DNA of 59,540 nucleotides from Candidatus Omnitrophota bacterium (GTDB lineage: Bacteria; Omnitrophota; Gorgyraeia; Gygaellales; Profunditerraquicolaceae), in contig JAHIOW010000026.1 of NCBI GenBank assembly GCA_018895075.1, positions 1 to 59,540 on the forward strand, in the 5' to 3' direction. The notes below the pieces were generated by a model. The model made no database searches and was not told the origin of the DNA. It saw only the letters and a list, made by a program, of their open reading frames with translations. Of this stretch, positions 3,593 through 58,059 are shown in pieces. The translations under genes were made by a program, and so were the position numbers. Position 1 is the stretch's first letter. Each line of letters begins with the position of its first letter.

Positions 3593-3597
3593 TTGCA

Positions 3598-4098: not shown

Positions 4099-4135
4099 AG
4101 GGACACCCTATCTGCTAATCGGGAAGGTGTCCCCT
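4099..4135. repeat. AGGGACACCCT ... AAGGTGTCCCCT hairpin (type A GGGAC element)
   Basis: Inverted repeat in the cooS-cooF spacer. Confidence 0.8.
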
Positions 4136-4148
4136 ACCCATTAGTTCT

Positions 4149-4184
4149 AGGGACACCCTTAGCTTTAGCAAAAAGGGTGTCCCT
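4149..4184. repeat. Perfect 12-bp inverted repeat AGGGACACCCTT / AAGGGTGTCCCT with a 12-nt loop (type A)
   Basis: The same element, in inverted orientation, occurs at 52932..52967; the loop cores AGCTTTAGC and AGCTAAAGCT are close to reverse complements of each other. Confidence 0.85.
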
Positions 4185-4188
4185 GAGT

Positions 4189-6096
4189 TTATTGGTACAT
4201 AACCGGCTTCAACTTCAAGGCCTGTCTTTTTTTATCAATATGCTCAATCATAATCTTAGCCATCTGCATAGGTTCAGCGCAAAATTCAAACCGGCCACCC
4301 ACAATAGACTCTAAATCTTTAGTGAGATAATCGGTGAGATTTTTGCTTCCCAGCGTAGCAAATGGACTGGCACCAAAGACAGTATAGACACCCGAGGCGA
4401 CAAAATAAAAGCCGATTGTGATTGCCTTCTCAGACATCCACTCCGGCGCGCAACCTGCCGCAGGGATATCTGATAAATCCTCTCCTAGCCCACCCTCTTT
4501 TATAATATAGGAGGCAGCGGTTAATATACGCGAATTATCTACACAAGAGCCTAAATGTAAAACCGGCGGAATACCTACTGCTTCACAGATTTCCTGTAAG
4601 CCGCGGCCGGCGTATTCCTTGGCTGCCTCGGGAATCAATAATCCGTGTTTGGCGCAGGCAATAGCTGAACATCCAGTCTGCAACACCAAGACGTCGTTCT
4701 TTATCAGCTCTTTTACTAAAGTAGTATGAAAATAATCATGTGTCTGCTTGGGATTATTACAACCCACCACTCCGGCTAAGCCGCGCAACCTACCTGAAAT
4801 GATTGCCTCATTTAAAGGTTTATAGGTAGCCCGGTATTTACCGCCCAAGATTTGAAAAATAATCTCCTTGGTAAAACCGGCTACTAAATCCATCTCTTGT
4901 TTAGGGATATTCACTCTCTCTTTATTACGCTTCGTAAAATTTTCAATACCCGATTTGATAATCTGTTTGGCTACCTCATAGGCATTCTCCGGCTTGAATT
5001 CAATGTGGTTGACCCCCGGAAAACGCGCCTTGGGATTTGTGGTAATAAGTTTGGTGTGAAAACAAGTGGCGACCTCAGCTAACGCCGGCATAATACACTG
5101 CACGTCTACTATCATTACCTCAACCGCCCCGGTAATAATGGCTAATTCTTGTTGCAGGAAATTCCCCGCCACAGGTATGCCATGGCGCATTAAAACTTCA
5201 TTGGCAGTGCAACAGATACCCGCTAAATTGATCCCTTCTGCGCCCACGCCCTTGGCTAATTTAATTAATTCCGGGTCTTTGCTAGCCTTAACCGCCATCT
5301 CGGATAAAATGGGTTCATGGCCATGGACCACGATATTTACATAATTTTCTTTTAATACCCCTAAGTTAACTTTACCTCTGATAGGTACAGGCGCGCCTAA
5401 AATCACATCCTGTAAATCAGTAGCCACCATTGAGCCGCCCCATCCGTCAGAAAGGGCGCAGCGCAGGCCGGTATTGACCAGATTTTTATAGTCATTATCT
5501 ACGCCCATGGTAGTGGTATGTAATAATTCTACTATTTCTCTATCTATGCCGCGGGGCGCAATATTTAATTTCTTCCAAATGGCTTGTCGTTTTTTCGGTG
5601 CCCGTTTTAAAAATACAAGTTCACCCTCTTGTCTACCGAATTCCTCCAGCAATTTTTTAGAAAGAGCTTTGGTAATTTCTTCTTTTGTTTTATTAATATC
5701 GATACCGAATTCTTGCGCCAAATCTTTAAGTTTCTCAATATCTGATATCCCATAATCATGGGTATGACCTTCGGATAATAAAGATAAAGTATGGGCTACA
5801 TCCCTGCCGTGGTCAGAATGGGCAGAAGCACCTACTGCGACCTTACGCACTAAATTCCTGGCGGCAATGGTATCGGCATTGGCACCACAGACGCCCACAC
5901 TGGCCCCCTCGCCAAAAGGATCAATCCGGCAAGGCCCCATATCGCAGACAGTACAACATAGGCCCAATTGTCCAAATCCGCACTGCGGCTCTTGCGATTC
6001 TAATCTATCCCAGGCGGTCTTGATATTTTCTGCTTGTGCCTTTTTTAAGATTTCTTGCGTAGCCAAATCTATAGACTTCTGTTTACTATCTGACAT
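4189..6096 (-). CDS. cooS: Anaerobic Ni-Fe carbon monoxide dehydrogenase catalytic subunit
   Basis: About 635 aa. N-terminal CGFGQLGLCCTVCDMGPC cluster motifs; typical CooS/AcsA length. GGAGG sits 6 nt upstream of the ATG at 6096. Confidence 0.93.
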   Translation of the reverse strand: MSDSKQKSIDLATQEILKKAQAENIKTAWDRLESQEPQCGFGQLGLCCTVCDMGPCRIDPFGEGASVGVCGANADTIAARNLVRKVAVGASAHSDHGRDVAHTLSLLSEGHTHDYGISDIEKLKDLAQEFGIDINKTKEEITKALSKKLLEEFGRQEGELVFLKRAPKKRQAIWKKLNIAPRGIDREIVELLHTTTMGVDNDYKNLVNTGLRCALSDGWGGSMVATDLQDVILGAPVPIRGKVNLGVLKENYVNIVVHGHEPILSEMAVKASKDPELIKLAKGVGAEGINLAGICCTANEVLMRHGIPVAGNFLQQELAIITGAVEVMIVDVQCIMPALAEVATCFHTKLITTNPKARFPGVNHIEFKPENAYEVAKQIIKSGIENFTKRNKERVNIPKQEMDLVAGFTKEIIFQILGGKYRATYKPLNEAIISGRLRGLAGVVGCNNPKQTHDYFHTTLVKELIKNDVLVLQTGCSAIACAKHGLLIPEAAKEYAGRGLQEICEAVGIPPVLHLGSCVDNSRILTAASYIIKEGGLGEDLSDIPAAGCAPEWMSEKAITIGFYFVASGVYTVFGASPFATLGSKNLTDYLTKDLESIVGGRFEFCAEPMQMAKIMIEHIDKKRQALKLKPVMYQ

Positions 6097-6114
6097 ATAC
6101 ATCCTCCGTCTTAT

Positions 6115-6990
6115 TTATAATCCTGCGGCCTCCAAAACCAATGGCACTTTTTTATCCCAGCCAATAGGCATAATATGAATGCCCTGACACATGGGTTTTA
6201 ATTCTTTAATCAACCGTGCAGATATCTCTATGGATCTCTTGGCTCTGTCTTCTTTAGGCGCCGCGCTCATTTCATCTATTAAGTTCTGCGGGACAGTGAC
6301 GCCGGCGACATTTTCATTCATATACCTTGCCATCCCTGCAGACTTTAATAAGACTATACCGGCCAATATCGTGGTCTTCAGGTGTTTTATCTTGCTTAAA
6401 AAAATCTCAAAAATATTGATATCATAAACTGCCTGGGTCTGAAAAAATTCAGCCCCGGCCTCTATCTTTTTCTCCATCTTGATAATCTGCGGCTCTAGAG
6501 GATCTGCGCCGGGATTAACTACCGCGCCCACGCAAAATTTGGGGGCTGAACCCTCTAATTTATTTGCCTGCATATCAAAACCTTCCTGAAGTTTTCTTAC
6601 CACTTGCAATAATTGCACTGAATCCAAATCAAATACCGGTTTTGCCTCAGGGTGATCCCCTAAGGTAGTATGGTCACCGGTTAAGATTAAAAGATTCTCA
6701 ATACTTAAGGCTGCGGCAGAAAGGATATCTGACTGCAAGGCAAGACGGTTACGGTCACGGCAGGTTACCTGGAATATCGGCTCAAACCCCTTCTGCTTCA
6801 GGAGACTGCACACTGCCAGAGAACCCAGGCGCATTACCGAACTCTGCAGGTCAGTGACATTAATGGCATCCACCCGTCCACGAATGAGTTCGGCATCCTC
6901 TAATATTGTCTTAGTCTCTATCCCTTTCGGCGGCCCAATCTCCGAAGTCACCAAAAACTTCCCTAATTGTATCTTCTCTTTAAAGGTCAT
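6115..6990 (-). CDS. metF: Methylenetetrahydrofolate reductase
   Basis: 291 aa MetF-family TIM-barrel protein, located between folD and cooS. Confidence 0.88.
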   Translation of the reverse strand: MTFKEKIQLGKFLVTSEIGPPKGIETKTILEDAELIRGRVDAINVTDLQSSVMRLGSLAVCSLLKQKGFEPIFQVTCRDRNRLALQSDILSAAALSIENLLILTGDHTTLGDHPEAKPVFDLDSVQLLQVVRKLQEGFDMQANKLEGSAPKFCVGAVVNPGADPLEPQIIKMEKKIEAGAEFFQTQAVYDINIFEIFLSKIKHLKTTILAGIVLLKSAGMARYMNENVAGVTVPQNLIDEMSAAPKEDRAKRSIEISARLIKELKPMCQGIHIMPIGWDKKVPLVLEAAGL

Positions 6991-7039
6991 ATTTATTTTT
7001 GTTTAATGAACCTACCGATTTTCGCAGTGGAAGAAAATT

Positions 7040-7894
7040 TTAGGGTTCTTGCTGTAACTTTGCCGCCTCGACCAGGTTGCGCATCAACATAGTCACCGTC
7101 AAAGGGCCTACGCCGCCGGGAACAGGCGTAATCCAAGAGGCGCGTTTTTCGGCAGCCTCAAACTCCACATCACCTACAATTTTACCTTCAACCCTATTTA
7201 TACCGACATCAATTACTATTGCCCCCTCTTTAACCCATTCACCCTTAATTAATCCTGCTTTTCCTACTGCCACAATCAGTATCTCGGCCTTCTTTACATG
7301 CTCTTCTAACTTTCCTGCCTTAGATGTCCCGATATGACAAACCGTAACTGTGGCGAATTTATCTAACAGCAAAAGGGCTAAAGGCTTGCCTACAATCTCA
7401 CTATGCCCCACCACCACCACTTCTTTACCGTATAAATCAACCCCTGTTTCCTTTAATAATTCCATTACCGCCGCCGGCGTACAGGGCAACATCTTTGTTT
7501 CCCCGAATATAATCTTTCCTATATTAGCCGGATGTATTGCCTCTACGTCTTTTTCCGGCAGAATAAACTGGCTGATTTTTTTATAATCTATCTGGCCAGG
7601 CAAGGGCATCTGGATAATAATACCATTTATGGATTTATCCGCGTTTAATTTCTTTATAAATTCAATCAGCACGCTCTCGGTAGTATCCTGGCCTAGTTTA
7701 TGCAGCTGATAATCCAGGCCTAAATCAAAAGCGATTTTCTGTTGCGATTTTACATAGGCAGCTGCCCCGGCATTCTCGCCCGCCTGAATACTGGCCAAAA
7801 TCGGTTTATTCTTTAAAGATTGGGCCTGCCGCCTTACTTCCTCTTTTATCTTCTCTGCAATAGGTTTACCTTCTAATAATCTTGCCAACTTCAA
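7040..7894 (-). CDS. folD: Bifunctional methylene-THF dehydrogenase / methenyl-THF cyclohydrolase
   Basis: 284 aa. Conserved FolD features: YVKSQQK, LPLP, VVVVGHSEIVGKP, TPVPGGVGPLT. Confidence 0.93.
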   Translation of the reverse strand: MKLARLLEGKPIAEKIKEEVRRQAQSLKNKPILASIQAGENAGAAAYVKSQQKIAFDLGLDYQLHKLGQDTTESVLIEFIKKLNADKSINGIIIQMPLPGQIDYKKISQFILPEKDVEAIHPANIGKIIFGETKMLPCTPAAVMELLKETGVDLYGKEVVVVGHSEIVGKPLALLLLDKFATVTVCHIGTSKAGKLEEHVKKAEILIVAVGKAGLIKGEWVKEGAIVIDVGINRVEGKIVGDVEFEAAEKRASWITPVPGGVGPLTVTMLMRNLVEAAKLQQEP

Positions 7895-8429
7895 CCTCCG
7901 TTTGTTTCCTTATTTTTTTAATTAATTTGGCCTTACGCTCTAATTCTTTTCTTACGGAGCTAGTCAGTTTCTTCTCGCCCAGCGATTTTAGGTTTATCTC
8001 TACATTAAAATATGCCGCAGTAAAAGCCGATTCTAAAAGAACTGCCGCTACTGCTACATCGCTGATGAGATTGATATTGCCTTTCTTTATCAATGGCGGG
8101 CATAATTTTATCCCCTCAAAGCAAAGCCGACAGGCCATAAAAGGAACATCCAGCGCATCCCGGATATTTTTACTTTTGTAGGCAACTACGTCTAAATCTA
8201 CTAAATTCAGGAATTGTTCTCTCAGTTTCTCGGATTTTTCTAATATTTTCTTTAATTCGTTTTCATATTGAGCATATTTAGGTTTTCCTAAGGTAAAATT
8301 AACTACCATGCTGATTAAAGATGCGCCTACAGATGCGGCTAATGCACTGGCTGAGCCTCCTCCCGGAGCAGGGACTCTGGCTGCTAAATCATCTAAATAT
8401 TTGCTTAAGGTTGATTCTTTATAAATCAT
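7866..8429 (-). CDS. fchA: Cyclodeaminase/cyclohydrolase-family protein (FchA-like methenyl-THF cyclohydrolase)
   Basis: FTCD_C-type N-terminus (LDDLAARVPAPGGGSASALAAS). fhs-fchA-folD order as in acetogens. Confidence 0.85.
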   Translation of the reverse strand: MIYKESTLSKYLDDLAARVPAPGGGSASALAASVGASLISMVVNFTLGKPKYAQYENELKKILEKSEKLREQFLNLVDLDVVAYKSKNIRDALDVPFMACRLCFEGIKLCPPLIKKGNINLISDVAVAAVLLESAFTAAYFNVEINLKSLGEKKLTSSVRKELERKAKLIKKIRKQTEVEVGKIIRR

Positions 8430-10144
8430 GATAGTCCTGTAATATTTCCTTTCTCATCAATATCAATACCTTCGCCTACGGGATGGCTGGGTAAGCCGGG
8501 CATAGTCTGCATCGTACCACAGAGAGGATACAAAAATCCTGCGCCAGCGGAGGCGCGGATATCTCTTATGGGCAGAATGAAATCACGCGGCCTGCCTTTA
8601 AGATCTGGGTCATGCGATAGAGAAAGATGGGTCTTGGCCATACAGATAGGCAGATTATCAAATCCGCGCTCGGTAAAAAGCTTGACCCTGCCTTCAGCTA
8701 ACTCTGAGTACTCTACATCAGCCGCCCCGTAAATTGAAGTGGCAATAATCTTAATTTTTTCCTTTATCGGTGTATCTAAGGGATAAAGAAAAGTGAACTT
8801 CTTTGGTAGCGCCGCCGCTTTAATCACGCTCCTGGCTAAATCTACGCCCCCCTTTGAGCCCTTTAACCAAACCTCGCTCATCTGACAATCATCCGCGCCA
8901 AATTCCATTGCCTTCTTTTTTACAAAATCTACTTCCTGATCAGTATCAGAACTGAATCTATTGACGGCCACCACTACCGGTATGCCGAAAATCTTAATAT
9001 TCTCTATATGTTTTTCTAAATTACAGAGGCCTTCTTCTATTGCCGCTATATTCTCTTTAACCAAACCTTCATCCAGGGGTTTACCCGCTATAATCTTAAA
9101 TCTGCCGCTGTGCGCCTTTAACGCCCGGATAGAACAGACAATAACCGCGGCATCAGGGACAAGCCCGCTCTGGCGGCATTTTATATCAAAGAACTTCTCT
9201 GCTCCGCAATCAGCACCAAAACCCGCCTCAGTCACCACATAATCTGAACAGGCAAGCGCGATTCTATCGGCCAGGATGGAACTGTTACCGTGGGCAATAT
9301 TGGCAAATGGGCCGGCGTGCACAAAACAAGGGGTATTTTCAATAGTCTGAATCAGATTTGGTTTTAAGGCGTCCTTAAGGAGCGCGGTCATGCTCCCGGC
9401 AACCTTTAGCCCTTGGGTAGTTATCGATTTGCCCTCAGAGGTATCAGCTAGAATAATCTTTCCGATGCGCTGACGCAAGTCTCCTAAACCGCTGCTCAAT
9501 GCTATTATCACCATTATCTCTGAGGCCACCGTAATATCAAATCCGCTATCCCGCGGGACTCCGTCTTTTTTACCGCCTAAACCAATTTTTATATTTCTTA
9601 AAGCCCTATCGCTTACATCCACTACCCGGCGCCAGTATATCCTCTCAGGATCAATACTAAGTTTATTGCCTTTAAGCAGGGAGTTATCTAAAAACGCAGC
9701 CGCCAGATTATGGGCCAGGCCTATGGCATGCACATCGCCCGTAAAATGCAGGTTAAAATCCTCCATGGGTAAGACCTGAGAATATCCACCGCCTGCTGCG
9801 CCTCCTTTTATGCCAAAGACCGGGCCCAGCGAAGGCTGCCTGATACAGGCGGATGTAAGTTTACCCAATCTATTTAAGGCCATAGATAAGCCAATGGTAG
9901 TGACTGTCTTACCCTCGCCTAAAGGCGTGGGGGTGATTGCAGTAACTAATATGTATTTTCCCCGAGGCCTCTTCTTTATCTTATCCAGAATACCCAGGTC
10001 TATCTTGGCAATATAATCACCATAAGGAATGAGATACCTCTTATCTATCTTTAGCTTCCTGGCTATTTTTCCTATGGGTTCTTTTTTTGCGGCTTGGGCG
10101 ATTTTAATATCAGGTAGCATATCTGGCATCCAGCTCAAAGGCAT
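8426..10144 (-). CDS. fhs: Formate--tetrahydrofolate ligase
   Basis: 572 aa. TPTPLGEGKTVTTIGL P-loop region, full-length FTHFS. The true start may be one of the internal Met codons near 10120-10129. Confidence 0.94.
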   Translation of the reverse strand: MPLSWMPDMLPDIKIAQAAKKEPIGKIARKLKIDKRYLIPYGDYIAKIDLGILDKIKKRPRGKYILVTAITPTPLGEGKTVTTIGLSMALNRLGKLTSACIRQPSLGPVFGIKGGAAGGGYSQVLPMEDFNLHFTGDVHAIGLAHNLAAAFLDNSLLKGNKLSIDPERIYWRRVVDVSDRALRNIKIGLGGKKDGVPRDSGFDITVASEIMVIIALSSGLGDLRQRIGKIILADTSEGKSITTQGLKVAGSMTALLKDALKPNLIQTIENTPCFVHAGPFANIAHGNSSILADRIALACSDYVVTEAGFGADCGAEKFFDIKCRQSGLVPDAAVIVCSIRALKAHSGRFKIIAGKPLDEGLVKENIAAIEEGLCNLEKHIENIKIFGIPVVVAVNRFSSDTDQEVDFVKKKAMEFGADDCQMSEVWLKGSKGGVDLARSVIKAAALPKKFTFLYPLDTPIKEKIKIIATSIYGAADVEYSELAEGRVKLFTERGFDNLPICMAKTHLSLSHDPDLKGRPRDFILPIRDIRASAGAGFLYPLCGTMQTMPGLPSHPVGEGIDIDEKGNITGLS

Positions 10145-13298: not shown

Positions 13299-13362
13299 TT
13301 AAAAGTCAAAACCCAAAAGTAAAAACCACAATTTAAAATTTAAAACTTTTGACTTTTGACTT
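13299..13362. repeat. Imperfect palindrome whose arms are heptamer arrays (AAAAGTC-type / CTTTTGA-type)
   Basis: queA-tgt spacer. Same heptamer family as 34655..34760. Confidence 0.7.
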
Positions 13363-14363: not shown

Positions 14364-15518
14364 TTAGTCTGCTCTAGTTTTAAGCTGTGCTTGGGGATAA
14401 TAATATTGCAGAATCTGCTCGTAACTATAACCCTGCTTAGCCATAAAATAGGCGCCCCATTGGCACAATCCCACTCCATGGCCCCATCCTGAACCCACGA
14501 ACACAACATCTTGATCAACTACCTTTACATCAAAATTCGTGCTTCTGATGACATTAGGGCCGAGGGCATTTCTAAAATCCTTGGCAGGAATTTTTATATC
14601 TTTTTTATTGGTTGTTATCTTTAGATATGTAATACGGCCTGACTTATCTCTGCCTGATATTATAATATCTTTTATTGTCCCGCAATCGCTATAACCAAGT
14701 TTTAACAATGCATCTTTTATCTGCTTAAGCGATAAAACCTTATGCCAGCTAAAATGGGGGGAGTCCGCGCAGAAATTACAAGAGACCCCCTTTAAAGGTG
14801 GTATATCTATCCTCCAAAGCAAAGAGGCATCTTGCGTATGGCCACCGCAAGTGGCATGATAATAAGTAGAAAAAATCCTCTCTTGATAAGTAAGAACTTC
14901 GTATTGCGTCTTATCTACTGCCTTATTCGTACGATAACGCTCTGAACTCTTTCCGCCATAGACCTGGGAATAGATATCGGAAGTTACGTCGTAATCTTTA
15001 GCTTTACTTTCCTGTATCTGATAAAGTGCGTATGTGCGGCATAATATTGCTTGCGCCTTTAATGCCTCCAGGGGCCAATAATGCGATACCTCATGATACA
15101 AAATACCCTTGATATAATCTTCTAAGTCAATAAAATTGATAGCTGATAAGCGCAGATTGTCTTTTTGTATAAACTGTATACAACCCCTAAAACTTCTCCC
15201 ATCCAGTACAATTACCCCATCCTTTTTTGGCTGAATAAAGATTTTATTGGCATTAAAATGCATCATCCCCATCAGGATGGCGCCGCCAGAAGCAGTAACT
15301 GTGGTCTTTAGGTTTTTGCCCCGGTATAACACTTTCTGATTTAAAGAATCAAATACTTCGTAAGAACCTCTGACTCTCAGGCTTAAAGATACAGCATCCT
15401 GCACAATAGCTACCCGGATAAATCTCGGGGAGTAGGCAAAAGAACTGACAACTGATAACTGATAACTGATAACTAAAATGACTATAAGTATAGTTAGAAA
15501 TTTTATTCTGTATTTCAT
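14364..15518 (-). CDS. SpoIID/LytB-domain protein, secreted
   Basis: SpoIID motifs (YHATCGGHT; GHGVGLCQWGA). Signal peptide from MKYRIKF (ATG at 15518, ATGA overlap with the upstream stop). Confidence 0.85.
   Translation of the reverse strand: MKYRIKFLTILIVILVISYQLSVVSSFAYSPRFIRVAIVQDAVSLSLRVRGSYEVFDSLNQKVLYRGKNLKTTVTASGGAILMGMMHFNANKIFIQPKKDGVIVLDGRSFRGCIQFIQKDNLRLSAINFIDLEDYIKGILYHEVSHYWPLEALKAQAILCRTYALYQIQESKAKDYDVTSDIYSQVYGGKSSERYRTNKAVDKTQYEVLTYQERIFSTYYHATCGGHTQDASLLWRIDIPPLKGVSCNFCADSPHFSWHKVLSLKQIKDALLKLGYSDCGTIKDIIISGRDKSGRITYLKITTNKKDIKIPAKDFRNALGPNVIRSTNFDVKVVDQDVVFVGSGWGHGVGLCQWGAYFMAKQGYSYEQILQYYYPQAQLKTRAD
15443..15477. repeat. Heptamer array AACTGAC-(AACTGAT)x3-AACTAAA inside the SpoIID signal-peptide region
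   Basis: Counted directly; encodes VISYQLSVVSS. Confidence 0.9.
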
Positions 15519-18132: not shown

Positions 18133-19106
18133 ATCCCCATTGCCTCTCTTGCTTCTTTAAGGGTCTTGGCAGCAATTAAAGTTGCTTTTTGCCTGCCTTT
18201 CTCTAATATCTTTATAATCTTTGGCTTGTCTTTAATTAATTCTTGGCGCCTTTTATGAAAAGGCTTCAATCTATCAATGATAAAGAAGCTGAGCCTTTTT
18301 TTACAATCGGTACACCCCAAACTAGCCTTGGTGCACCAATCATAGACCTGGCCTTTCATTTTCGGGATAAATAAGGAGTAATAAGAGAAAACATTGCAGA
18401 TATCGGGATGGCCTTTATCAGTCAACTTAATTCTCTGGGGGTCAGTAAACATATTTTGTATATTCTTTTTGATTAAATCTTCGGAATCACAAAGATTGAT
18501 GGTATTGCCGTAACTCTTACTCATCTTTCTGCCGTCCAGGCCCAGGAGCCGGGGTGATTCAGTTAATATCGCCTCGGGGGATGAGAATATTTTTCTTTTA
18601 TAGAGACTATTAAATCGACGGCTAATCTCGCGGGTAAGTTCTAAGTGAGGCAGCTGATCTTCGCCTACAGGGACTTTATCTGCCTTATAAAGTAAGATAT
18701 CCGCTGCCTGCAGGACTGGATAACCTAAGAAACCATAGGTACTTAAATTGCGTGTTTTAATTTCTCTCATTTGCTCTTTATACGTAGGGCATCTCTGTAG
18801 CCATCCTAAAGGGGTAAAACAAGAAAAGACCATATGTAATTCCAGGTGTTGGGGCACCTGAGACTGGATAAATAAAGTGGATTTATCAGGGTCTATGCCT
18901 ACGCTTAACCAATCAATGACATTATCGATGACAAACTCAGGTATACTATGCGCATCTTCGTATTCGCTCATCAGCGCATGCCAGTCAGCGACCATAAAGA
19001 AACATTCATATTCATCTTGTAATTTTATCCAATTATCCAATGCCCCCACAAGATGGCCGAGATGTAATCTACCTGTAGGGCGCATACCGCTTAATATACG
19101 TTTCAT
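18129..19106 (-). CDS. trpS: Tryptophan--tRNA ligase
   Basis: HLGH and KMSKS motifs. Start at MKRILSG (ATG at 19106, 1-nt overlap with the infB stop); the upstream ORF extension is rejected. Confidence 0.93.
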   Translation of the reverse strand: MKRILSGMRPTGRLHLGHLVGALDNWIKLQDEYECFFMVADWHALMSEYEDAHSIPEFVIDNVIDWLSVGIDPDKSTLFIQSQVPQHLELHMVFSCFTPLGWLQRCPTYKEQMREIKTRNLSTYGFLGYPVLQAADILLYKADKVPVGEDQLPHLELTREISRRFNSLYKRKIFSSPEAILTESPRLLGLDGRKMSKSYGNTINLCDSEDLIKKNIQNMFTDPQRIKLTDKGHPDICNVFSYYSLFIPKMKGQVYDWCTKASLGCTDCKKRLSFFIIDRLKPFHKRRQELIKDKPKIIKILEKGRQKATLIAAKTLKEAREAMGI

Positions 19107-24120: not shown

Positions 24121-25200
24121 TTATCTCCCTATTTCTCTTAATAACACATCCGCGCATTTATTAAAAGGGATTTTCCTTGCGGGTTTACCTTGCTTAAATA
24201 AAAGCCCTTCTTTTTTACCAAAGGCAATTCCTATATCTGCCTCCCTGGCCTCACCCGGACCGTTAACCAGACAACCCATTATCGCAACCTTAAGAGGTTG
24301 CGAGTTTACTGTTAACAGTTTACAGTTAACAGTATTTAATCTTTCTTCAAGGTCTTTTACTATCTTAACTAAATCCACCTCGCATCTGCCGCAAGTGGGA
24401 CAACTAATAATTTCAGGGCTGAAGCGGCGTAATCCCAGCGCTGCTAAGATAGACTTTGCCGCCTTAACTTCTTCTTGAGGCTCATCTGTAAGCGATATCC
24501 TTATTGTATCACCAATTCCCTCTAATAGCAAATTACCCAGGGCGATACTAGACTTTATTATCCCCAGCTCGGATAAGCCCGTAGCGGTTACGCCTAAATG
24601 CAAGGGGTAGCCACAAAGCCTGCTAAATTTGCGATACGCTTCTATTGTATCGAAGATATTAGAGGCCTTCAAAGAAACTACGATATCATAAAACCCGGAT
24701 TTCTCTAAAATCTTTATATAATCCAGGGCGCTTTTAACCATCTTATCTGCTACTGAATGACACTTGACGCTTGACGCTTGACACTTTCTTATTGACCCCG
24801 AATTAATTCCCACCCTTATAGGAATACCGCCTGTCTTTGCCGCCCTGGCTATTTCACGGATTTGCTCTCTCTTGTATATATTGCCAGGGTTTAACCTTAT
24901 TTTATCCACTCCAGAGTCTATGGCTTTTATGCCTAGACGCCAATCAAAATGTATATCCGCCACTAAAGGTATCTTCACCTTAGGCTTAATCTTACTTAAT
25001 GCCTGGGCATCGGCATTATCTTTCACTGCCAAACGGACAATCTCACAGCCAACGCTTTCTAATTTCTTTATCTGCCTGATGGTTCTTTCTATATCTTTCG
25101 TCTTGGTCTTGGTCATTGATTGTATGGCAATAGGATTTTCCCCGCCGATACAAATATTACCTATTTTTATGATTTTAGTCTTGCCTCTTGTTATCTTCAT
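24121..25200 (-). CDS. ispG: 4-hydroxy-3-methylbut-2-enyl diphosphate synthase
   Basis: IAIQSMT, and the CPTCGRC / Fe-S C-terminal domain. Carries two in-frame heptamer arrays. Confidence 0.93.
   Translation of the reverse strand: MKITRGKTKIIKIGNICIGGENPIAIQSMTKTKTKDIERTIRQIKKLESVGCEIVRLAVKDNADAQALSKIKPKVKIPLVADIHFDWRLGIKAIDSGVDKIRLNPGNIYKREQIREIARAAKTGGIPIRVGINSGSIRKCQASSVKCHSVADKMVKSALDYIKILEKSGFYDIVVSLKASNIFDTIEAYRKFSRLCGYPLHLGVTATGLSELGIIKSSIALGNLLLEGIGDTIRISLTDEPQEEVKAAKSILAALGLRRFSPEIISCPTCGRCEVDLVKIVKDLEERLNTVNCKLLTVNSQPLKVAIMGCLVNGPGEAREADIGIAFGKKEGLLFKQGKPARKIPFNKCADVLLREIGR
24303..24337. repeat. Heptamer array (AGTTTAC/TGTTAAC/AGTTTAC/AGTTAAC/AGTATTT), in frame within ispG
   Basis: Counted directly; encodes TVNCKLLTVNS. 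Confidence 0.85.
24761..24788. repeat. Heptamer array CACTTGA-(CGCTTGA)x2-CACTTTC, in frame within ispG
   Basis: Counted directly; encodes KCQASSVKCHS. Confidence 0.9.
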
Positions 25201-32761: not shown

Positions 32762-32950
32762 ATCATCACCTCTTAAATGAGCAGACAACTTACGGAGTAA
32801 AACGACGTAAGTTGTAGACCGAAGGTCGTCTGCGAATTTAATCCCGACGTATCGTCGGGATAAGTTCGGACTGATAAGTTATGTCGCTTAGATTATCTTT
32901 AATATATGGCTCCCTGCCTGCCGGCAGGCAGGCATAACTTATGTCCTCAC
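32762..32950 (-). promoter_or_regulatory. Highly structured 189-nt spacer / candidate 5' leader RNA: several nested hairpins including a C(UUCG)G tetraloop
   Basis: Stem pairs read from the sequence are 32781-86/32828-33, 32785-94/32806-15, 32817-20/32824-27, 32842-49/32853-60 and 32873-82/32925-34. There is also a 20-bp palindrome at 32913-32. Confidence 0.35.
32913..32932. repeat. Perfect 20-bp palindrome CCTGCCTGCCGGCAGGCAGG
   Basis: Related copies at 55745..55762 and 53946..53986. Confidence 0.9.
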
Positions 32951-34768
32951 TTACCTCTTGATTATCTTTTTAAACTCTTCTTTTTTGGGAACAGTCCGCA
33001 GGCTAAAGATTTCCTGGTTATCTAGAAGATAGGTCGGCCCGAACATAACCTTCAACTCTTTATTCAGGCTGATATTGTCTTTCAAAAGCCTTTTCCCCTC
33101 TTCGCTGCGGCTACAACTACTTATCTTATCTGCAGCCAATCCAGACAGGCAATCCTCCCACCAAGAACTATCAATATTTTTCGCCCGGCAGATAATATAA
33201 TCCCAAAAAAATCTGGGATAGTTCTTTTGCACGCATACGCTGCGCAGATACTCCTGGACCTCAGGCCTGCCTCCGGGGGCATCAAACTTATCTTCCTGCT
33301 CTACTGCCAAAAAATGTATAGCGGGATTAAATTCCCTTGTCATCTCTAACAGCTCTCTAGCATTCCTGTCATACAGACTTATAAATAAATCTAATTTCTT
33401 TTTTATTTTTTTCCTATCCGGAAAATAGGAGAAACCGCTGAATTCAGGTTTGACCATATAAAAATCGCCTTTTATTTCTAGATTTTCTTTTAGTTTATCA
33501 AATCCTTTTTCTTTGTCTACCTCTTTACCTAAAAGATAGGCGGGTAACGCCTTGATATTAAAATTGCTGAGGAATTTCCTAGCGCGCGCATCCGGATAAT
33601 ATAAATAAGAGACAACTAAGCCGGGAAATTGTGTTTTTAAAAATTTAATCATATCCTGGCTATCGCATACACTGCATATCTTAGGCGTAATAATCGAAAG
33701 GGTAACTCCGGAGGCCTTAGTAAATAGACACTCGGATTGCCCTGTGCCTGGTTTCTGGCATGCGCCGATCATGCCTTCCTGCTTGCAATTGGCATCAGAA
33801 AAACAGCGCGGTAAAATAGAGAGCATCTCCGGGTCATCCTTGATTTCATCGGAAAGGCGCAATTCTTCTACCTTATGCTCTATGATTTTTTTATCCTTTA
33901 GCGTTAAACTTAACTTACCCAACCGCCGGCCCTGCCATGATGGCCTCAATACTAAAACAGAATCTATTTTACTGTAAAGCTCTTCTTTATTATTGCCGTG
34001 CCTGCGGCTGCGGCCGGAAAAGACTACATCTATCTCAGCGATCTCCTTTATCAGCCTGAGGTCATCATCCTCCCCTAACTGGCTTAAAAGTATTATAATA
34101 TCCGCGTTCTTTTTCTTTAACTCCTCCACTGCCCCTCTAATCGCAATCTTAGGCCCGGAAAATTTAAGGTCAAAGGCCTTCTGTCTTGCAGACAGGCCGG
34201 TTACGCCAATTATACCGATTTTGACGCCAGCAACTTCCTTTATAATGTAAGCTTCAAACAGTGGAGGCTTTTCTTTAGGATCATTGGTCAGGATATTACA
34301 GGAAACAGGGCTTGGTTTTATCTTGGCTATATTTTCTAAAAGAAAATCTTTGCCAAAATTAAACTCATCGTCTCCCAAGGTTAGCGCATCGTACTTTATT
34401 AACTCTATGGCCTTAAGATTCATCAGGGTCCGTTGCATATCCAGTTGCGTATTTTGGGTATATTCATCCGTTAGGCCGCCAGCAAAAAATCCGCCTGAAT
34501 CCAGAACTAACGTATTGGGATTCTCTTTCCTTAATTCTTTGATTAATGTTGCCCGGCGCGCTAGCCCCCCATCTGATTCCTGAGGGCAATCGCAGGGGTA
34601 AATCATGGCATGGGTCTGGCCTGTATACAAAATCGTAATCTCTTGAGCATAACAGGTAAACGTAAAACTCAAAATGCAAAACGTAAAACTACAACTTAAA
34701 ATTGAAAATTTTAAATTTTGAATTGTGATTTTGACTTTTGACTTTTGACTTTTGACTTTTCTAATCAT
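32951..34768 (-). CDS. Secreted fusion protein: 5'-nucleotidase/metallophosphatase-like N-domain with a degenerate metal motif, plus a C-terminal CxxC thioredoxin/DsbA-like region
   Basis: The N-domain resembles UshA/SoxB-type phosphatases, although ILYTGQTH replaces the usual D-x-H. The C-terminal part has CSVC and thioredoxin-fold-like segments. The signal peptide is encoded by a heptamer-repeat palindrome. Confidence 0.5.
   Translation of the reverse strand: MIRKVKSQKSKVKITIQNLKFSILSCSFTFCILSFTFTCYAQEITILYTGQTHAMIYPCDCPQESDGGLARRATLIKELRKENPNTLVLDSGGFFAGGLTDEYTQNTQLDMQRTLMNLKAIELIKYDALTLGDDEFNFGKDFLLENIAKIKPSPVSCNILTNDPKEKPPLFEAYIIKEVAGVKIGIIGVTGLSARQKAFDLKFSGPKIAIRGAVEELKKKNADIIILLSQLGEDDDLRLIKEIAEIDVVFSGRSRRHGNNKEELYSKIDSVLVLRPSWQGRRLGKLSLTLKDKKIIEHKVEELRLSDEIKDDPEMLSILPRCFSDANCKQEGMIGACQKPGTGQSECLFTKASGVTLSIITPKICSVCDSQDMIKFLKTQFPGLVVSYLYYPDARARKFLSNFNIKALPAYLLGKEVDKEKGFDKLKENLEIKGDFYMVKPEFSGFSYFPDRKKIKKKLDLFISLYDRNARELLEMTREFNPAIHFLAVEQEDKFDAPGGRPEVQEYLRSVCVQKNYPRFFWDYIICRAKNIDSSWWEDCLSGLAADKISSCSRSEEGKRLLKDNISLNKELKVMFGPTYLLDNQEIFSLRTVPKKEEFKKIIKR
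34655..34760. repeat. ~105-bp imperfect palindrome built from AAAANNN / NNNTTTT heptamers, ending in (GACTTTT)x4
   Basis: Spans the serA stop / next-gene start junction. Encodes the N-terminal leader KSQKSKVK...FSILSCSFTFCILSFTF. Confidence 0.8.
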
Positions 34769-37545: not shown

Positions 37546-37562
37546 TTGCCCATTCTCCTATT

Positions 37563-37591
37563 ATTAAACTGTTAAATTGTTACATTGTCAA
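37563..37591 (-). promoter_or_regulatory. Candidate promoter TTGACA-17 nt-TTTAAT upstream of the aminotransferase-serA unit
   Basis: -35 at 37586..37591 and -10 at 37563..37568 (reverse complement), embedded in a repeat hairpin. An AGGAGAA RBS follows. Confidence 0.4.
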
Positions 37592-37622
37592 AAGCAATTT
37601 AGCAGTTTAGCAATTTAACAAT
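37564..37622. repeat. Hairpin with arms of 7-8-mer arrays (AAACTGTT AAATTGTT ACATTGTC / CAATTTAG CAGTTTAG CAATTTAA)
   Basis: clpP-aminotransferase spacer. Confidence 0.7.
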
Positions 37623-39866: not shown

Positions 39867-40752
39867 GGTCCTCCGTGGAAGATATGATCAATTTAGGTCT
39901 TCCTACAAGCGTAATCCTTTTATCTAAGGCGCTATAAACTGCCTCATCACTATAAGAGATATTATCGCCTCTGGTAATCTTAACATTGCCCCGCGCAATA
40001 ATTTTCTCAATGCTACTACCCATAAGAGTGGGTGTCTGGCCGGATTCGCTTGTATCTTTACTTGTATCCTCATCAGACATAGTAAAATAGACATCCATAA
40101 TATCGCAATCAATCCCTATAGTTTGACTATCTACATTAACATTATTATTAAATACAGCCACATTTTTCTCATAATCTATCTGGAGTGGCCCGTCGCAGGT
40201 AATAATCGTCTTATTTCTATCCAGCATCCCTGATTGCCCCTGGTTCTTAATGCTGCTGACCTCTACAGTGACGTCTTTCTCCAAAGTCACTTTATTTAAA
40301 TCAGGTTGCCCTGTAGCGCCGGAGGCAGTGCTAAATAAATTATCTTTTTCTATATTGACTACATCTTTTGTGGTAACTATCTTATTTTTCCTGTCCCAGT
40401 CTAAAGAATCCGTGGTCAGCCTGGCGCCTGAGGAGCTAGTGATGATCACATTTTGCTCTAAATGCACCTTGCCTTCTATCTTATCAAAATCGCCTCTATC
40501 GGCCGTAAGGTTGACATCCTCTTTTTCCTCGTAAATATTACCTATTATGTCTTTAAGTTTTACGACTTCGGTAAATATATCCGCGGATTTAGCTGAAAGG
40601 TCCCAGGTCTTTTTGCCTTTATCGCCGTAGCCGGCCAGTGAAAAATCATTGATCTGCTGATCCGCTTCTTGAAGGTTTTCTTGTCCTCGCGCTTCTAAAA
40701 CAAAAACCATCAGGAATACAAAACTAAAAACTAATCCGCACCTTTTAAACAT
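39844..40752 (-). CDS. OstA/LptA-family periplasmic LPS-transport protein, possibly a combined LptC/LptA
   Basis: N-terminal hydrophobic anchor/signal, repetitive beta-jellyroll-like OstA sequence. Occupies the lptC-lptA slot between kdsC and lptB. Confidence 0.65.
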   Translation of the reverse strand: MFKRCGLVFSFVFLMVFVLEARGQENLQEADQQINDFSLAGYGDKGKKTWDLSAKSADIFTEVVKLKDIIGNIYEEKEDVNLTADRGDFDKIEGKVHLEQNVIITSSSGARLTTDSLDWDRKNKIVTTKDVVNIEKDNLFSTASGATGQPDLNKVTLEKDVTVEVSSIKNQGQSGMLDRNKTIITCDGPLQIDYEKNVAVFNNNVNVDSQTIGIDCDIMDVYFTMSDEDTSKDTSESGQTPTLMGSSIEKIIARGNVKITRGDNISYSDEAVYSALDKRITLVGRPKLIISSTEDLDASFGN

Positions 40753-57291: not shown

Positions 57292-57348
57292 TGCTCCTCC
57301 TTTTAAAAAGTAGTATATATTAATTCTTTCCTTCCAAAACGCTACCTT

Positions 57349-57513
57349 TTAACGGCCGTCATCCTTGCGCTTTGAATAACAATCCTTACAGTATACCGGA
57401 CGGTCATCTCTGGGTTTGAAAGGGACTTCGCATTCTTTCTTACAGTCTGCGCAAATCGCCTTGTGCATCTGCCGTGGCCCTGTGCCGAATCCACCATTTT
57501 GTCTAAATGCCAT
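57349..57513 (-). CDS. Small (54 aa) CxxC-x17-CxxC zinc-ribbon protein, not in the ORF track
   Basis: Hand translation gives MAFRQNGGFGTGPRQMHKAICADCKKECEVPFKPRDDRPVYCKDCYSKRKDDGR*. AGGAGG lies 4 nt upstream of the ATG. Paralog of the C-terminal part of the next gene. Confidence 0.75.
   Translation of the reverse strand: MAFRQNGGFGTGPRQMHKAICADCKKECEVPFKPRDDRPVYCKDCYSKRKDDGR
57417..57459. repeat. 43-bp segment identical to 57749..57791 (the CxxC-x17-CxxC coding core)
   Basis: Direct comparison of the two loci. Confidence 0.9.
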
Positions 57514-58043: not shown

Positions 58044-58059
58044 CTTGCTCCTTTTAATT

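Follow-up and report, generated by a model that had tools for sequence, protein, structure and literature searches.

In-frame tandem heptanucleotide arrays in essential and lipopolysaccharide genes of Omnitrophota: positions, turnover and likely origin

Short tandem arrays of a 7-nt unit are present inside the reading frames of essential genes and lipopolysaccharide (LPS) genes in a stretch of 59,540 nucleotides from Candidatus Omnitrophota bacterium (assembly GCA_018895075.1, contig JAHIOW010000026.1, positions 1 to 59,540 of the forward strand), referred to here as the window. Because 7 is not divisible by 3, adding or losing a single unit would shift the frame. The question therefore arises whether the arrays are switches of LPS structure, as an earlier note on this DNA proposed for the glycosyltransferase genes (GT4, GT9-GT9) and lpxK, or tolerated selfish insertions, as it proposed for ispG.

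Heptanucleotide arrays of the window

Arrays were detected by TRF together with our own period scans, and gene identities were confirmed with Pfam. The window contains six strong period-7 arrays (score at least 12), while each of the other periods between 4 and 15 gave 0-2. Shuffling hardly produced any such array (mean 0.00 in 100 dinucleotide shuffles of the window, 0.03 in triplet shuffles), and in Omnitrophota loci totalling 664 kb period 7 accounted for 36 arrays vs 0-4 at periods 4-11. The excess at period 7 is thus well beyond chance. When weaker arrays are included, the in-frame array loci number eight and are spread over six genes, not the "eight genes" of that note, whose coordinates and frames were otherwise reproduced by TRF, our scans and translation. 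Five loci are perfect or carry one mismatch. The arrays measure about 4.4 copies per locus (29-32 nt; 2.4-6.6 copies across TRF and our own scans). All coding arrays are in frame on the minus strand, which is the coding strand, and translation through the three frames gives peptides with a 7-aa period. The coding arrays and a weak array are as follows.

15443-15474, minus strand: SpoIID array, AACTGAT x4.6 on the plus strand; coding (TCAGTTA)x4.6, the reverse of TAACTGA
24303-24337, minus strand: IspG site 2, aa 288-300, LNTVNCKLLTVNS; imperfect, period 7/14
24758-24786, minus strand: IspG site 1, aa 139-148, KCQASSVKCH; coding unit GTCAAGC / GTCAAGT
34716-34760, minus strand: array of the 32951-34768 gene, aa 3-18, in the positively charged N-terminal region of the signal peptide
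40720-40734, minus strand: weak array of the LptC-domain gene, AAAACTA, 2.1 copies, at the N-terminus
46947-46978, minus strand: GT9-GT9 linker array, aa 319-329, VTNYQLPITNY; (TTACCAA)x4.6, perfect
47532-47565, minus strand: GT9-GT9 second site, aa 123-134, RAQSAKAGKAQS; degenerate AGCGCAA array
50293-50323, minus strand: GT4 linker array, aa 168-178, RVQSAEYRVQK; AGAGTGC x2 and AGAGTAC x2
55044-55072, minus strand: LpxK site B, aa 328-337, RLPFTVYRLP; (CGTTTAC)x4.1, perfect
55718-55769, minus strand: LpxK site A, ACTGACG (plus strand) in about 4.4 copies, 55718-55734 and 55756-55769

Each coding array of the window uses a different unit, in agreement with the earlier note. The recurrence of units is better described by identity of the whole unit than by the YTGAY and GGTAA cores pointed out in the note, which no explanation required.

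The SpoIID array covers aa 21-32 (LVISYQLSVVSS) in the signal-peptide region of a protein identified by Pfam as SpoIID, and an array at the equivalent site was found in one other locus (L039). In the 32951-34768 gene, the coding unit GTCAAAA forms 4.6 perfect copies along with degenerate ones. The ATG of this ORF overlaps the stop of serA (ATGA); the NCBI product is shorter (559 aa), and the array would then form a 5' leader. This site (34716-34760) lies outside the coverage of the fetched orthologs. The N-terminal site of the LptC-domain gene possesses two full arrays in another genome (L107), and dprA and topA of a relative also contain arrays.

In IspG, the AlphaFold model shows pLDDT below 50 in two segments only, and these are the two array peptides (residues 141-145 at site 1; residues 292-299, coil, at site 2). 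At site 2, ACTGTTA and ACTGTAA units alternate with a period of 14, since either unit repeated on its own would give an in-frame TAA. The GT9-GT9 array at 46947 lies in the inter-domain linker of the fusion. The second GT9-GT9 site (80% matches and 20% indels in TRF) possibly holds the remnant of a palindrome insert; in a relative (L094) the array at the corresponding aa 127-133 is interrupted by a 45-nt palindrome. The GT4 array sits between PF13439 (12-166) and PF00534 (179-339). LpxK site A is interrupted by a 21-nt GC-rich palindrome at 55735-55755 (CCTGCCTGCCGGCAGGCATGG, encoding PMPAGRQ), and removal of these 21 nt leaves a perfectly periodic 31-nt array. What had been taken for a simple lpxK array at 55731-55779 is hence an ACTGACG array split by a palindrome.

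Compared with the eight coding loci, only 1-2 arrays of the window are intergenic. Two intergenic hairpins, both previously attributed to related arrays, were analyzed.

13299-13362, no strand assigned: hairpin between queA and tgt; arms of AAAAGTC-type heptamers and the complement GACTTTT
37560-37622, no strand assigned: hairpin between clpP and an aminotransferase gene; arms of period-8 tandem units

The attribution holds for the queA/tgt hairpin, with its heptamer arms, and fails for the other, with its period-8 arms. The queA/tgt hairpin has an MFE of -18.5 kcal/mol and z = -4.4 on the transcribed (minus) strand, and the second hairpin shows z = -3.8 and -6.0. The heptamer at 13345-13362 is a TTTTGAC unit found also at 34729-34760, and it is the sole recurring unit in the window.

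Array sites across Omnitrophota

Across the fetched Omnitrophota loci (1.52 Mb), 116 arrays were counted. Since ispG and GT4 served as anchors for fetching, the counts for these two genes carry an ascertainment bias, whereas the LpxK, GT9-GT9 and LpxL-ELM1 sites lie in the flanks and are free of it. ORFs of at least 120 codons contain 91 of the arrays, and about 80 map to a small set of array sites. Coding arrays cluster at IspG 141-148 (8 other loci) and 289-296 (10 other loci), GT4 170-174 (17 loci), GT9-GT9 127-133 (4 loci) and 322-332 (11 loci), LpxK 98-109 (site A, 12 loci) and 331-333 (site B, 5 loci, with 3 more mapping to the overlapping start of the next gene), and LpxL-ELM1 487-490. 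Seven of the eight window loci are at such shared sites (IspG x2, GT4 linker, GT9-GT9 x2, LpxK x2), which fall in disordered loops, linkers or signal peptides. The remaining 25 of the 116 arrays are outside ORFs and fall in the roughly 5-10% of non-coding DNA of these other loci; the intergenic density is therefore higher than the coding density. Some of them adjoin the next gene, directly between a stop codon and the following start.

At a given site the position is retained while the sequence changes. The GT4 linker peptides of different genomes are chemically unrelated (RVQSAEY, YAIRNTQ, GRRKKEE, FKIQNSK). The window GT4 and that of a syntenic relative (367 aa each) align without gaps and carry different arrays, and the linker stays constant at 27 aa with either 3.6 or 6 array copies. 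Related units were found homogenised within each lineage (AGAGTGC, AGAGTAC, AGAGAAC and AGAGGAC; CTATCGA, CTAACGA and CCAGCGA). In a second MAG, a T->C polymorphism at 50304 makes unit 2 of the window GT4 array equal to units 3-4. Arrays occur in both orientations at the sites, and in many lineages they have decayed without change in the protein. The length distribution has its mode at 29-34 nt (characteristic length about 31-32 nt) and shows no monotonic decay. Lineages with homogeneous ispG arrays possess 5.1 other arrays per 100 kb vs 0.76 in lineages with decayed ones (Fisher p = 0.012).

A simple picture of +21-nt insertions (1 + 3 copies) was considered and holds only in part. Set against solved homologues, three sites (IspG site 1, the GT4 linker and LpxK site A) have roughly the usual length, and for GT4 there is no net insertion against the PDB homologues. 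At IspG site 1, orthologs show other 7-aa-periodic peptides or lack about 7 aa. The loop of IspG site 2 is longer, by 5 to 19 aa, than in other phyla. The earlier description of in-frame inserts stands as regards the frame and the permissive loops and linkers, while several of the arrays are not net insertions. The notion of tolerated, selfish-like sequence, raised earlier for ispG, comes nearer to the truth than a switch, but the units of the arrays are overwritten at constant length rather than plainly inserted. What appears to be new is that the array sites are common to Omnitrophota and that the unit differs by lineage at fixed length, together with the sharing of one unit by unlinked sites of a genome and the nesting of a GC-rich palindrome in the arrays. 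No description of such tandem repeats in Omnitrophota was found in the searchable literature, in line with the earlier note.

Copying between loci and the GC-rich palindrome

In one genome the unit ACGCAAT occupies six unlinked sites, where the array boundaries and phase differ and no fixed cassette end is seen. Among pairs of arrays at different sites, the units are identical for 8.9% of those within a genome and 0.29% of those between genomes, vs 0.10% under the null, which puts sharing inside genomes at 86 times null; one genome supplies 6 of the 11 identical same-genome pairs, and metagenomic contigs were assigned to one genome only through shared contigs or duplicated sequence. This sharing rests on other genomes, since the coding arrays of the window all differ. 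Elsewhere, one genome has a 55-nt cassette of array and palindrome in near-identical form in both ispG and lpxK, with unrelated flanks. The six unlinked sites and the cassette together indicate that arrays were copied between loci. Units of the window also recur at different sites of other genomes: the VTNYQLPITNY peptide and TTACCAA unit of the GT9-GT9 linker are present identically in an LpxK (P0131), and CGTTTAC, the unit of LpxK site B, encodes an IspG site 1 peptide (P0018). No transposase, reverse transcriptase (RT) or RAYT gene was found in the window or in the annotated flanks (about 20-60 kb per genome).

The palindrome of LpxK site A belongs to a dispersed family with two further representatives in the window.

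32913-32932, no strand assigned: intergenic, perfect 20-nt palindrome CCTGCCTGCCGGCAGGCAGG
53945-53986, minus strand: double (nested) GC-rich palindrome, in frame in the LpxL-ELM1 linker at about aa 347-360 (...LPARQGRQGKG...)

The LpxL-ELM1 fusion has Pfam domains at 24-299 and 401-628. In-frame palindrome inserts of 21, 24 and 45 nt were found in lpxK, ispG, GT4, GT9-GT9 and LpxL-ELM1 of several genomes, and the palindrome is conserved between genomes with only 60-70% identity in housekeeping proteins. Nesting of the 21-nt form in arrays is about 200 times as frequent as expected by chance. A relaxed CCTGCC..GGCAGG pattern with mismatches returned mostly generic small palindromes, and a strict 20-mer search was used instead. 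An apparent placement at the exact array centre was an artefact, since each side had been required to hold at least 13 nt; without that bias the search gave splits such as 24/13, 13/22 and 10/21. An origin of the arrays as footprints of palindrome insertion and excision (7 or 14 nt left per cycle) was ruled out, because the array phase is continuous across a 24-nt insert, no target-site duplications were found at palindrome/array junctions, and essential genes would lose their frame with a 14-nt duplication. Neither a relevant report on the palindrome sequence in the searchable literature nor an Rfam family above the gathering threshold in the window was found.

Explanations, related repeats and implications

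The arrays are best read as tolerated, self-perpetuating heptamer arrays at permissive sites whose unit is rewritten at the DNA level, and neither as switches nor as adaptive insertions (probability about 0.6). This reading draws on the period-7 specificity, the conserved positions, the constant-length turnover of units, the sharing of units and of a 55-nt cassette within genomes, the disorder of the encoded peptides and the lack of copy-number or frame variants in the data analyzed. Arrays would persist at a few fixed positions where the protein accepts any sequence of the right length, each supplying about 10 residues through reading in all three frames, and selection for frame and loop length would keep them at about 4.4 copies. 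Inside an array the units may be homogenised by concerted evolution through misaligned pairing and repair, and the array may creep across adjacent linker sequence with the linker length unchanged. Arrays, sometimes with a nested 21-24-nt GC-rich palindrome, would also be copied to unlinked sites of the same genome. As molecular mechanism, we infer slippage, misaligned short-tract conversion or template switching. The period of 7 probably has a polymerase-based reason of the kind proposed by Mrazek (2007), as related in PMC4679880.

The contingency switch, in which one 7-nt unit more or less would frameshift GT4, GT9-GT9 or lpxK and toggle LPS structure, is the least credible of the alternatives. 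It would fit the occurrence of units that are not multiples of 3 inside LPS-biosynthesis ORFs and the heptanucleotide phase-variable repeats known from Haemophilus and E. coli NeuO. However, comparison of the window's assembly with five further sequence sets from other samples, among them both LPS-region MAGs and Logan runs, all at 99.4-100% identity, showed zero copy-number change in the covered arrays; these are consensus assemblies, in which low-frequency population variants would not show. No out-of-frame allele was detected at the array sites of fetched orthologs by a frame test that would miss an OFF allele if a shifted ORF of at least 120 codons still contained its array; each of the 25 non-ORF arrays is flanked by separate full-length genes, and none resembles a frameshifted gene. 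The invariant 27 aa of the GT4 linker and the copy number of only about 4, below that of typical phase-variable tracts, also speak against switching. So does the presence of such arrays in ispG and lpxK, where OFF would be lethal; in LPS genes they sit in conserved linkers or loops, just as they do in ispG. Arrays are moreover not confined to surface, host-interaction or restriction-modification genes, as ispG, lpxK, SpoIID and the dprA and topA of a relative show. Selection for a function of the DNA or RNA, for example as sites for a repeat-binding protein or as translational pause signals which, at domain boundaries or after signal peptides, would aid co-translational folding or export, is also very unlikely. 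The persistence of array positions across the phylum could indicate function, and their location at domain boundaries, at signal peptides and, for intergenic arrays, directly between stop and next start, as with TAACTGA and GGGNATC repeats, points the same way. But the unit is unconstrained between lineages and found in both orientations, many lineages let the arrays decay with the protein unchanged, arrays at one site have no common conserved sequence or structure, and no Rfam match was found in the window.

Two further explanations differ from the preferred one in how the arrays arise and spread. If they were purely local microsatellites, each would slip independently and survive where tolerated, with no transfer between loci. 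The heptamer slippage bias proposed by Mrazek (2007; related in PMC4679880), the disordered and linker locations, the related units at orthologous sites, which would reflect gradual concerted drift, and the separate unit of each window coding array all agree with this. It is nevertheless improbable in view of the identical units at up to six unlinked sites, the 86-fold sharing, the 55-nt cassette in two genes with unrelated flanks, the length mode at 29-34 nt and the replacement of sequence at constant length rather than by +21 nt. An active writer, that is a lineage-specific enzyme installing genome-specific arrays and the palindrome at preferred targets, existing arrays included, is also unlikely, if slightly less so; candidates are a reverse transcriptase that copies from a short template, a transposase of the HUH/RAYT type or an integrase. 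It would account for genome-specific units at many sites, for cassettes copied without flanking homology, for the characteristic length, for activity that appears on or off by lineage, and for a palindrome that is conserved over distant genomes and nests in arrays. Horizontal spread was likewise inferred for TAACTGA by MacGregor (2015), with 'no mechanism evident' (PMC4679880). Against a writer stand the absence of candidate genes from the window and annotated flanks, the varying boundaries and phase among copies of one unit with no fixed end, the lack of target-site duplications, and the gradual evolution of many units, which needs no writer. Against the preferred reading of tolerated, self-perpetuating arrays stands that ectopic copying without shared flanking homology has no established pathway here, nor does the window hold a candidate enzyme.

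Dispersed heptanucleotide repeats of bacteria have been known since about 1990 (STRR). The window arrays are members of this class, and the cyanobacterial STRR analogy drawn in the earlier note is apt. The SpoIID unit is the reverse of TAACTGA. Heptamers are the most abundant class of long prokaryotic SSRs, for which polymerase slippage was proposed (Mrazek 2007, as cited in PMC4679880 and PMC4692102). The long SSRs (5-11 nt) of that survey, as those papers present it, share with the present arrays the tandem heptamers, the period-7 excess, the environmental non-pathogenic hosts and the lack of classical phase variation. Relative to the survey as presented there, which predates the available Omnitrophota genomes, the additions here are arrays with a unit that is not a multiple of 3, in frame in essential genes, at phylum-conserved sites and with unit turnover. 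STRR and GGGNATC repeats of Xanthomonas and Nostoc are likewise dispersed heptamers, with about four units per array, intergenic copies near ORF ends and one unit at many loci of a genome, which here holds for relatives, as in the window only TTTTGAC recurs. They are, however, G-rich, quadruplex-forming and under-represented in ORFs, whereas the units of Omnitrophota are of many kinds and for the most part not G-rich, many of them lie in ORFs, and their four-copy mode coincides with reading-frame and linker-length constraints rather than quadruplex formation (PMC4692102). Regulatory roles were proposed for intergenic TAACTGA and GGGNATC repeats (PMC4679880, PMC4692102).

TAACTGA itself is found in Beggiatoaceae, Cyanobacteria and Bacteroidetes, and its reverse encodes SVISYQL, a type of peptide shared by the SpoIID array of the window (PMC4679880). 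IspG site 2 corresponds to TAACTGT, a one-base variant encoding LLTVNC-type peptide (PMC4679880), and the units of the other six window loci are unrelated to TAACTGA. As here, in-ORF TAACTGA copies lie at the periphery of protein structures and have no known dispersal mechanism; for the origin and spread of these heptamer repeats 'no mechanism is evident' (PMC4679880). Beggiatoa has one dominant unit, mostly directly upstream of start codons (PMC4679880), whereas Omnitrophota have many units per genome, retain orthologous positions phylum-wide and, in the window, carry mostly coding copies, internal to ORFs and not a few nt upstream of start codons.

Rickettsia palindromic elements are dispersed palindromic inserts of about 100-150 bp, in frame in genes including essential ones, which add tolerated peptide. 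Named earlier as an analogue, they do not match the heptamer arrays, which are not palindromic but direct repeats some 30 nt long. The nested 21-24-nt palindrome, a dispersed family inserted in frame into ORFs, is the better counterpart, although at 20-45 nt it is much shorter. REP/BIME elements are extragenic palindromes mobilised by RAYT transposases and usually species-specific. They resemble the GC-rich palindrome of 20-21 nt, which is dispersed, forms a stable hairpin, occurs also in intergenic regions and may be doubled by nesting. In contrast to them, it is also in frame in ORFs, is common to distant genomes and prefers heptamer arrays, and no RAYT gene was seen in the 20-60 kb or so examined per genome. 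Contingency loci of Haemophilus and Neisseria (PMC2651432) share repeats that are not multiples of 3 in surface-polysaccharide ORFs, but here neither copy-number polymorphism nor OFF frames were seen, the copies are few, essential genes are affected too and the organisms are environmental.

For the annotation of uncultured bacteria, tandem repeats in LPS genes are by analogy alone no ground for calling a gene phase-variable. The low-complexity 7-aa-periodic segments are driven by the DNA and not by the protein; masking them is advisable in alignments, phylogenies and structure predictions of Omnitrophota proteins. In IspG, LpxK and the glycosyltransferases, the array sites mark positions where an arbitrary inserted peptide is tolerated. 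It is a tentative possibility, unlikely on present evidence, that an enzyme-driven system of Omnitrophota, and perhaps of other heptamer-rich bacteria, repeatedly rewrites fixed sites in essential genes with genome-specific arrays of about 31 nt and a nested 21-nt palindrome, copying cassettes to unlinked sites without flanking homology. In that case the arrays would count as in-frame, site-resident mobile DNA of a new kind, and the system could supply the missing mechanism of STRR and TAACTGA-type repeats. About eight positions in conserved proteins, traceable over hundreds of genomes, form a natural time series. Homogenisation, constant-length overwriting, unit swap, palindrome insertion and decay can each be scored against the protein alignment, and the question of mechanism is therefore testable through comparative genomics.

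Period-7 arrays in the window

The whole window was scanned by Tandem Repeats Finder, with a self-match scan and a mismatch-tolerant score as cross-checks. The period-7 arrays claimed in the earlier note were present at the positions it gave.

Period-7 arrays identified in the window by Tandem Repeats Finder
15443-15474, minus-strand ORF, SpoIID
24303-24333, minus-strand ORF, IspG site 2
24758-24786, minus-strand ORF, IspG site 1
34716-34760, minus strand, gene 32951-34768
46947-46978, minus-strand ORF, GT9-GT9
50293-50323, minus-strand ORF, GT4
55044-55072, minus-strand ORF, LpxK site B
55718-55734, minus-strand ORF, LpxK site A, part of the array

Six uninterrupted runs of 12 or more matches were observed at lag 7 of the window, against 0-1 at each other lag from 4 to 15, and the mismatch-tolerant score agreed that the signal is specific to period 7. 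Shuffled windows contained a mean of 0.00 (100 dinucleotide-preserving shuffles) or 0.03 (100 triplet shuffles) period-7 arrays. The observation holds and is statistically secure. Every gene of the window is encoded by the minus strand, and translation confirmed that the arrays are read in frame inside ORFs and yield the 7-aa-periodic peptides quoted. By Pfam, the host genes are SpoIID, GcpE/IspG, the GT9-GT9 fusion, the GT4 glycosyltransferase and LpxK. Some details were corrected. The eight array loci belong to only six genes and not to at least eight; the ACTGACG array reported at 55731-55779 exists but is split by a 21-nt palindrome and is not simple; and of the two hairpins said to have heptamer arms, 13299-13362 is heptameric but the arms at 37560-37622 have period 8. 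The source is very probably Candidatus Omnitrophota: the window was identified as contig JAHIMD010000012.1 of GCA_018896475.1, with Omnitrophota MAGs as the relatives that are best named. Period-8 arrays were also found at ispG site 2 of L008:10001-11101 (GTTATCCC x4) and L016:2741-3733 (AACAGGCA-type x4), so a period of 7 is not a strict rule. At IspG site 2 of the window, ACTGTTA and ACTGTAA units alternate with a period-14 signal, because an array made of one of these units alone would put TAA in frame.

The N-terminus of the LptC-domain gene has a weak 2.1-copy AAAACTA repeat (40720-40734), probably an array in decay or in the making, since two full heptamer arrays occupy the matching position in another locus, L107. 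No heptamer array was found in the Wood-Ljungdahl cluster (148-10144), which encodes the ACS/CODH beta subunit, CODH (prismane family), MTHFR, FolD, a cyclodeaminase-domain protein and formate-THF ligase.

Array sites in proteins and across the phylum

An AlphaFold model of IspG was built on 26 orthologs (mean pLDDT 85.7). The sole segments predicted with pLDDT below 50 were residues 141-145 and 292-299, the two repeat-encoded peptides, both modelled as coil flanked by well-formed elements. The GT4 array (aa 168-178) is situated exactly between two Pfam domains (12-166 and 179-339), the GT9-GT9 array (46947-46978) where the two GT9 halves meet, and the arrays of SpoIID and gene 32951-34768 in N-terminal signal-peptide regions. 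The view of the repeat peptides as insertions held in part when lengths were measured against solved homologues: IspG site 2 is ~8 residues longer, but IspG site 1 is only ~1 residue longer and LpxK site A and the GT4 linker are of about normal length. The arrays therefore mostly replace permissive segments and do not simply add to them.

Alignment of IspG orthologs of ~70% identity revealed that both loops carry 7-aa-periodic peptides that differ between orthologs (RQSPVASRQSP, RLPFTVYRLP, RTSYIVHRTS, RVKGQGSRVKGQ and TTNHEPRTTNH, for example), and some orthologs are ~7 residues shorter there. DNA was read for 80 loci fetched from GTDB species genomes by an IspG profile. Among them, the CPxCGR-to-MGC span is 27 codons in non-Omnitrophota genomes and 30-46 codons, with period-7 DNA in most, in Omnitrophota and two Elusimicrobia. 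The IspG units are related and homogenised per lineage (CTATCGA, CTAACGA, CCAGCGA, ACCACGA, CGCTATC, TTACCAC, TAACTGT). LpxK orthologs likewise have period-7 arrays at two sites. A GT4-anchored metagenome scan added ~68 further LPS-cluster loci, giving 116 arrays in 1.52 Mb, all mapped to window-protein coordinates.

Array sites in window-protein residues, with the number of loci bearing an array (IspG and GT4 were the scan anchors, a design that inflates the counts for these two; the flank sites are free of that bias)
IspG 141-148, 8 loci
IspG 289-296, 10 loci
GT4 170-174, 17 loci
GT9-GT9 127-133, 4 loci
GT9-GT9 322-332, 11 loci
LpxK 98-109, 12 loci
LpxK 331-333, 5 (+3) loci
LpxL-ELM1 487-490, 4 loci
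SpoIID 26, 1 locus

Of the eight loci with in-frame arrays in the window, seven are at shared sites, the exception being the leader of gene 32951-34768, which is covered by no fetched ortholog. In two MAGs labelled Elusimicrobia (L047:6910-7965 and L056:10001-11056), the IspG site 2 loop is extended in the Omnitrophota style with period-7 DNA, which points to common ancestry, gene transfer or mis-binning. In L048, the two ispG arrays (7409-7437 and 7840-7871) are mutual reverse complements (AGGCTGA, AGCCTTC) ~430 nt apart on the same mRNA, and inverted copies of one unit flank a gene in L020 (4960, 5372) and in L008 (6106, 7680).

Unit turnover, copying and the nested palindrome

The GT4 proteins of the window and of its syntenic relative (L093/L094, one 79-kb ENA contig, also JGI Ga0315294_10000025) align without gaps at 367 aa each, while their linkers differ wholly: RVQSAEYRVQK from an AGAGTRC array in the window versus YAIRNTQYAIR from an ACGCAAT array in L094. 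Nearly all array-bearing, palindrome-free orthologs have a linker of 27 codons (a few have 28), whose length stays the same with 3.6 or 6 array copies; a more distant GT4 clade has a conserved 25-codon linker without array. Units at this site include a graded family (AGAGTGC, AGAGTAC, AGAGAAC, AGAGGAC, AGACAAC), the pattern that concerted evolution of a single old array should give, and unrelated replacements (ACGCAAT, GGAAGAA, CAAAATT, ACCACGA), and in many lineages the array has decayed to a faint 7-aa periodicity. Array length has its mode at 29-34 nt, with 4.x copies in 40/75 arrays and 3.x in 17/75, and no monotonic decay. Between two MAGs of the window population, a T-to-C change at 50304 makes unit 2 of the GT4 array identical to units 3 and 4; this single case is what intra-array conversion would produce. 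Because orthologs carry chemically unrelated peptides at any one site, the protein constrains length and not sequence, which is driven at the DNA level. The alternative of tolerated insertions raised in the earlier note was broadly right.

In the GT4 linker of L100:6884-8032 and L134:10001-11200, a GC-rich palindrome (~CCCGCCCTGGCAAAGCGAAGCGGGCCAGGG) other than the one described below is, with two flanking AGAGAAC units, repeated in tandem x2-3, stretching the linker from 27 to 47-60 aa.

Units are also shared between unlinked sites of one genome. In the L093/L094 genome, ACGCAAT occurs at six (IspG 1 and 2, DprA, LpxK A and B, and the GT4 linker) and GTCARGT in TopA and LpxL-ELM1. Array pairs at different sites were compared after locus de-duplication. 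Identical units were found in 8.9% (11/123) of same-genome pairs, to which six genomes contribute and one gives 6/11, against 0.29% of pairs from different genomes and 0.10% (maximum 0.29%) in a composition-matched null. A 55-nt cassette, ACGCAATACGCAATA-CCTYACCTGCTCAGGCAGGCARGG-CGCAATACGCAATACG, is present in both ispG and lpxK of the L093/L094 genome, two substitutions apart and with unrelated flanks, and a related cassette occupies the GT4 linker of L099. The 55-nt cassette is the most direct evidence that arrays are copied within a genome. Loci with homogeneous ispG arrays had 5.1 further arrays per 100 kb versus 0.76 for loci with decayed ones (Fisher p = 0.012), and the array process appears to be active in some lineages and shut off elsewhere.

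A conserved GC-rich palindrome, CCTGCCTGyCCGGCAGGCAGG, was found in Omnitrophota loci at 21 copies per Mb, as against 4 in other phyla. Period-7 arrays lie on both sides of 11/33 strict copies versus 0.15% of random positions (~200x); variant and double copies, too, were found inside arrays, and the host arrays have many different units. The inserts, of 21, 24 or 45 nt, are multiples of three, and the palindrome occurs both between genes and in frame in ORFs (peptide ~LPAGRQ). No match was found in Rfam and no description in the searchable literature.

Palindrome copies
Window 55735-55755, inside the lpxK array
Window ~53945-53986, nested double copy, LpxL-ELM1 linker
Window 32913-32932, intergenic
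Elsewhere: L010:10433-10453; L093:10429-10452; L094:10974-10997 and 18371-18415; L099:6217-6237; L110:698-717; L118:11200-11220; L121:13964-13983

Across a 24-nt insert the array phase is continuous only when the insert is ignored, so the palindromes were inserted without target duplication. An origin of the arrays as footprints of palindrome insertion was rejected on the same grounds.

Phase variation, known heptamers and the origin of the arrays

The earlier note proposed that arrays in LPS genes act as contingency switches. Same-population assemblies from other samples (a second MAG, three Logan runs, a JGI metagenome and another NCBI MAG) were 99.4-100% identical to the window, with 3-42 substitutions each. 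They showed zero array indels, all arrays being covered except 13345 and 34716, though consensus assemblies could miss rare within-population variants. Among the 116 arrays, 91 are in ORFs of at least 120 codons, and ~80 map to shared sites. The 25 outside ORFs occupy short spacers between two separate full-length genes, none having the appearance of a frameshifted gene, a test that an OFF allele inside a long shifted ORF would escape. The ispG and lpxK genes are essential, and the LPS-gene arrays occupy sites of the same type as theirs. The switch reading is not supported.

A 1-nt indel at 58052 between two MAG assemblies changes the product of a treble-clef zinc-finger gene (166 versus 140 aa), in a region with two copies of a 120-nt repeat (57345-57463 and 57676-57794, 84-85% identity). 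An AbiEii-family toxin (type IV toxin-antitoxin nucleotidyltransferase, 58098-58757) adjoins a 195-aa ORF without Pfam match at the contig edge. Another 1-nt indel, against Logan assembly SRR27458589, is at 45884 in the spacer between a deoxyhypusine-synthase-like gene and GT9-GT9, whose starts gene callers placed differently in the two assemblies.

The analogy with cyanobacterial STRR, dispersed genome-specific heptamers (PMC4692102), was well chosen, as the Omnitrophota arrays belong to this class by anatomy and period specificity. The SpoIID array is the very TAACTGA repeat of Beggiatoaceae, Cyanobacteria and Bacteroidetes, and the repeat of IspG site 2 differs from it by one base. In those groups, most TAACTGA repeats precede start codons, the few in-ORF copies being at protein termini and encoding SVISYQL (PMC4679880), and the GGGNATC repeats of Xanthomonas and Nostoc prefer four units and are mostly intergenic (PMC4692102). 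In contrast, the Omnitrophota arrays reside in frame in essential genes at phylum-conserved positions, their unit is overwritten at constant length, and they host a nested palindrome. Sporadic period-7 arrays in control loci (Elusimicrobia, Zixibacteria, Ignavibacteria, Clostridia) fit the generality reported in 2007 (Mrazek, as cited).

Heptanucleotides are reported to be the most abundant class of prokaryotic long SSRs, for which polymerase slippage was proposed as the cause (Mrazek 2007, as cited in PMC4679880 and PMC4692102). Local slippage alone cannot give shared units at unlinked sites and the 55-nt cassette in two genes. That an active enzyme-driven system lies behind the arrays seems improbable to us. 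The best-supported explanation is a self-perpetuating, DNA-driven repeat, which would be renewed by homogenisation of units within arrays and by copying between them, and which persists where a protein can accept any peptide as long as its length is kept.
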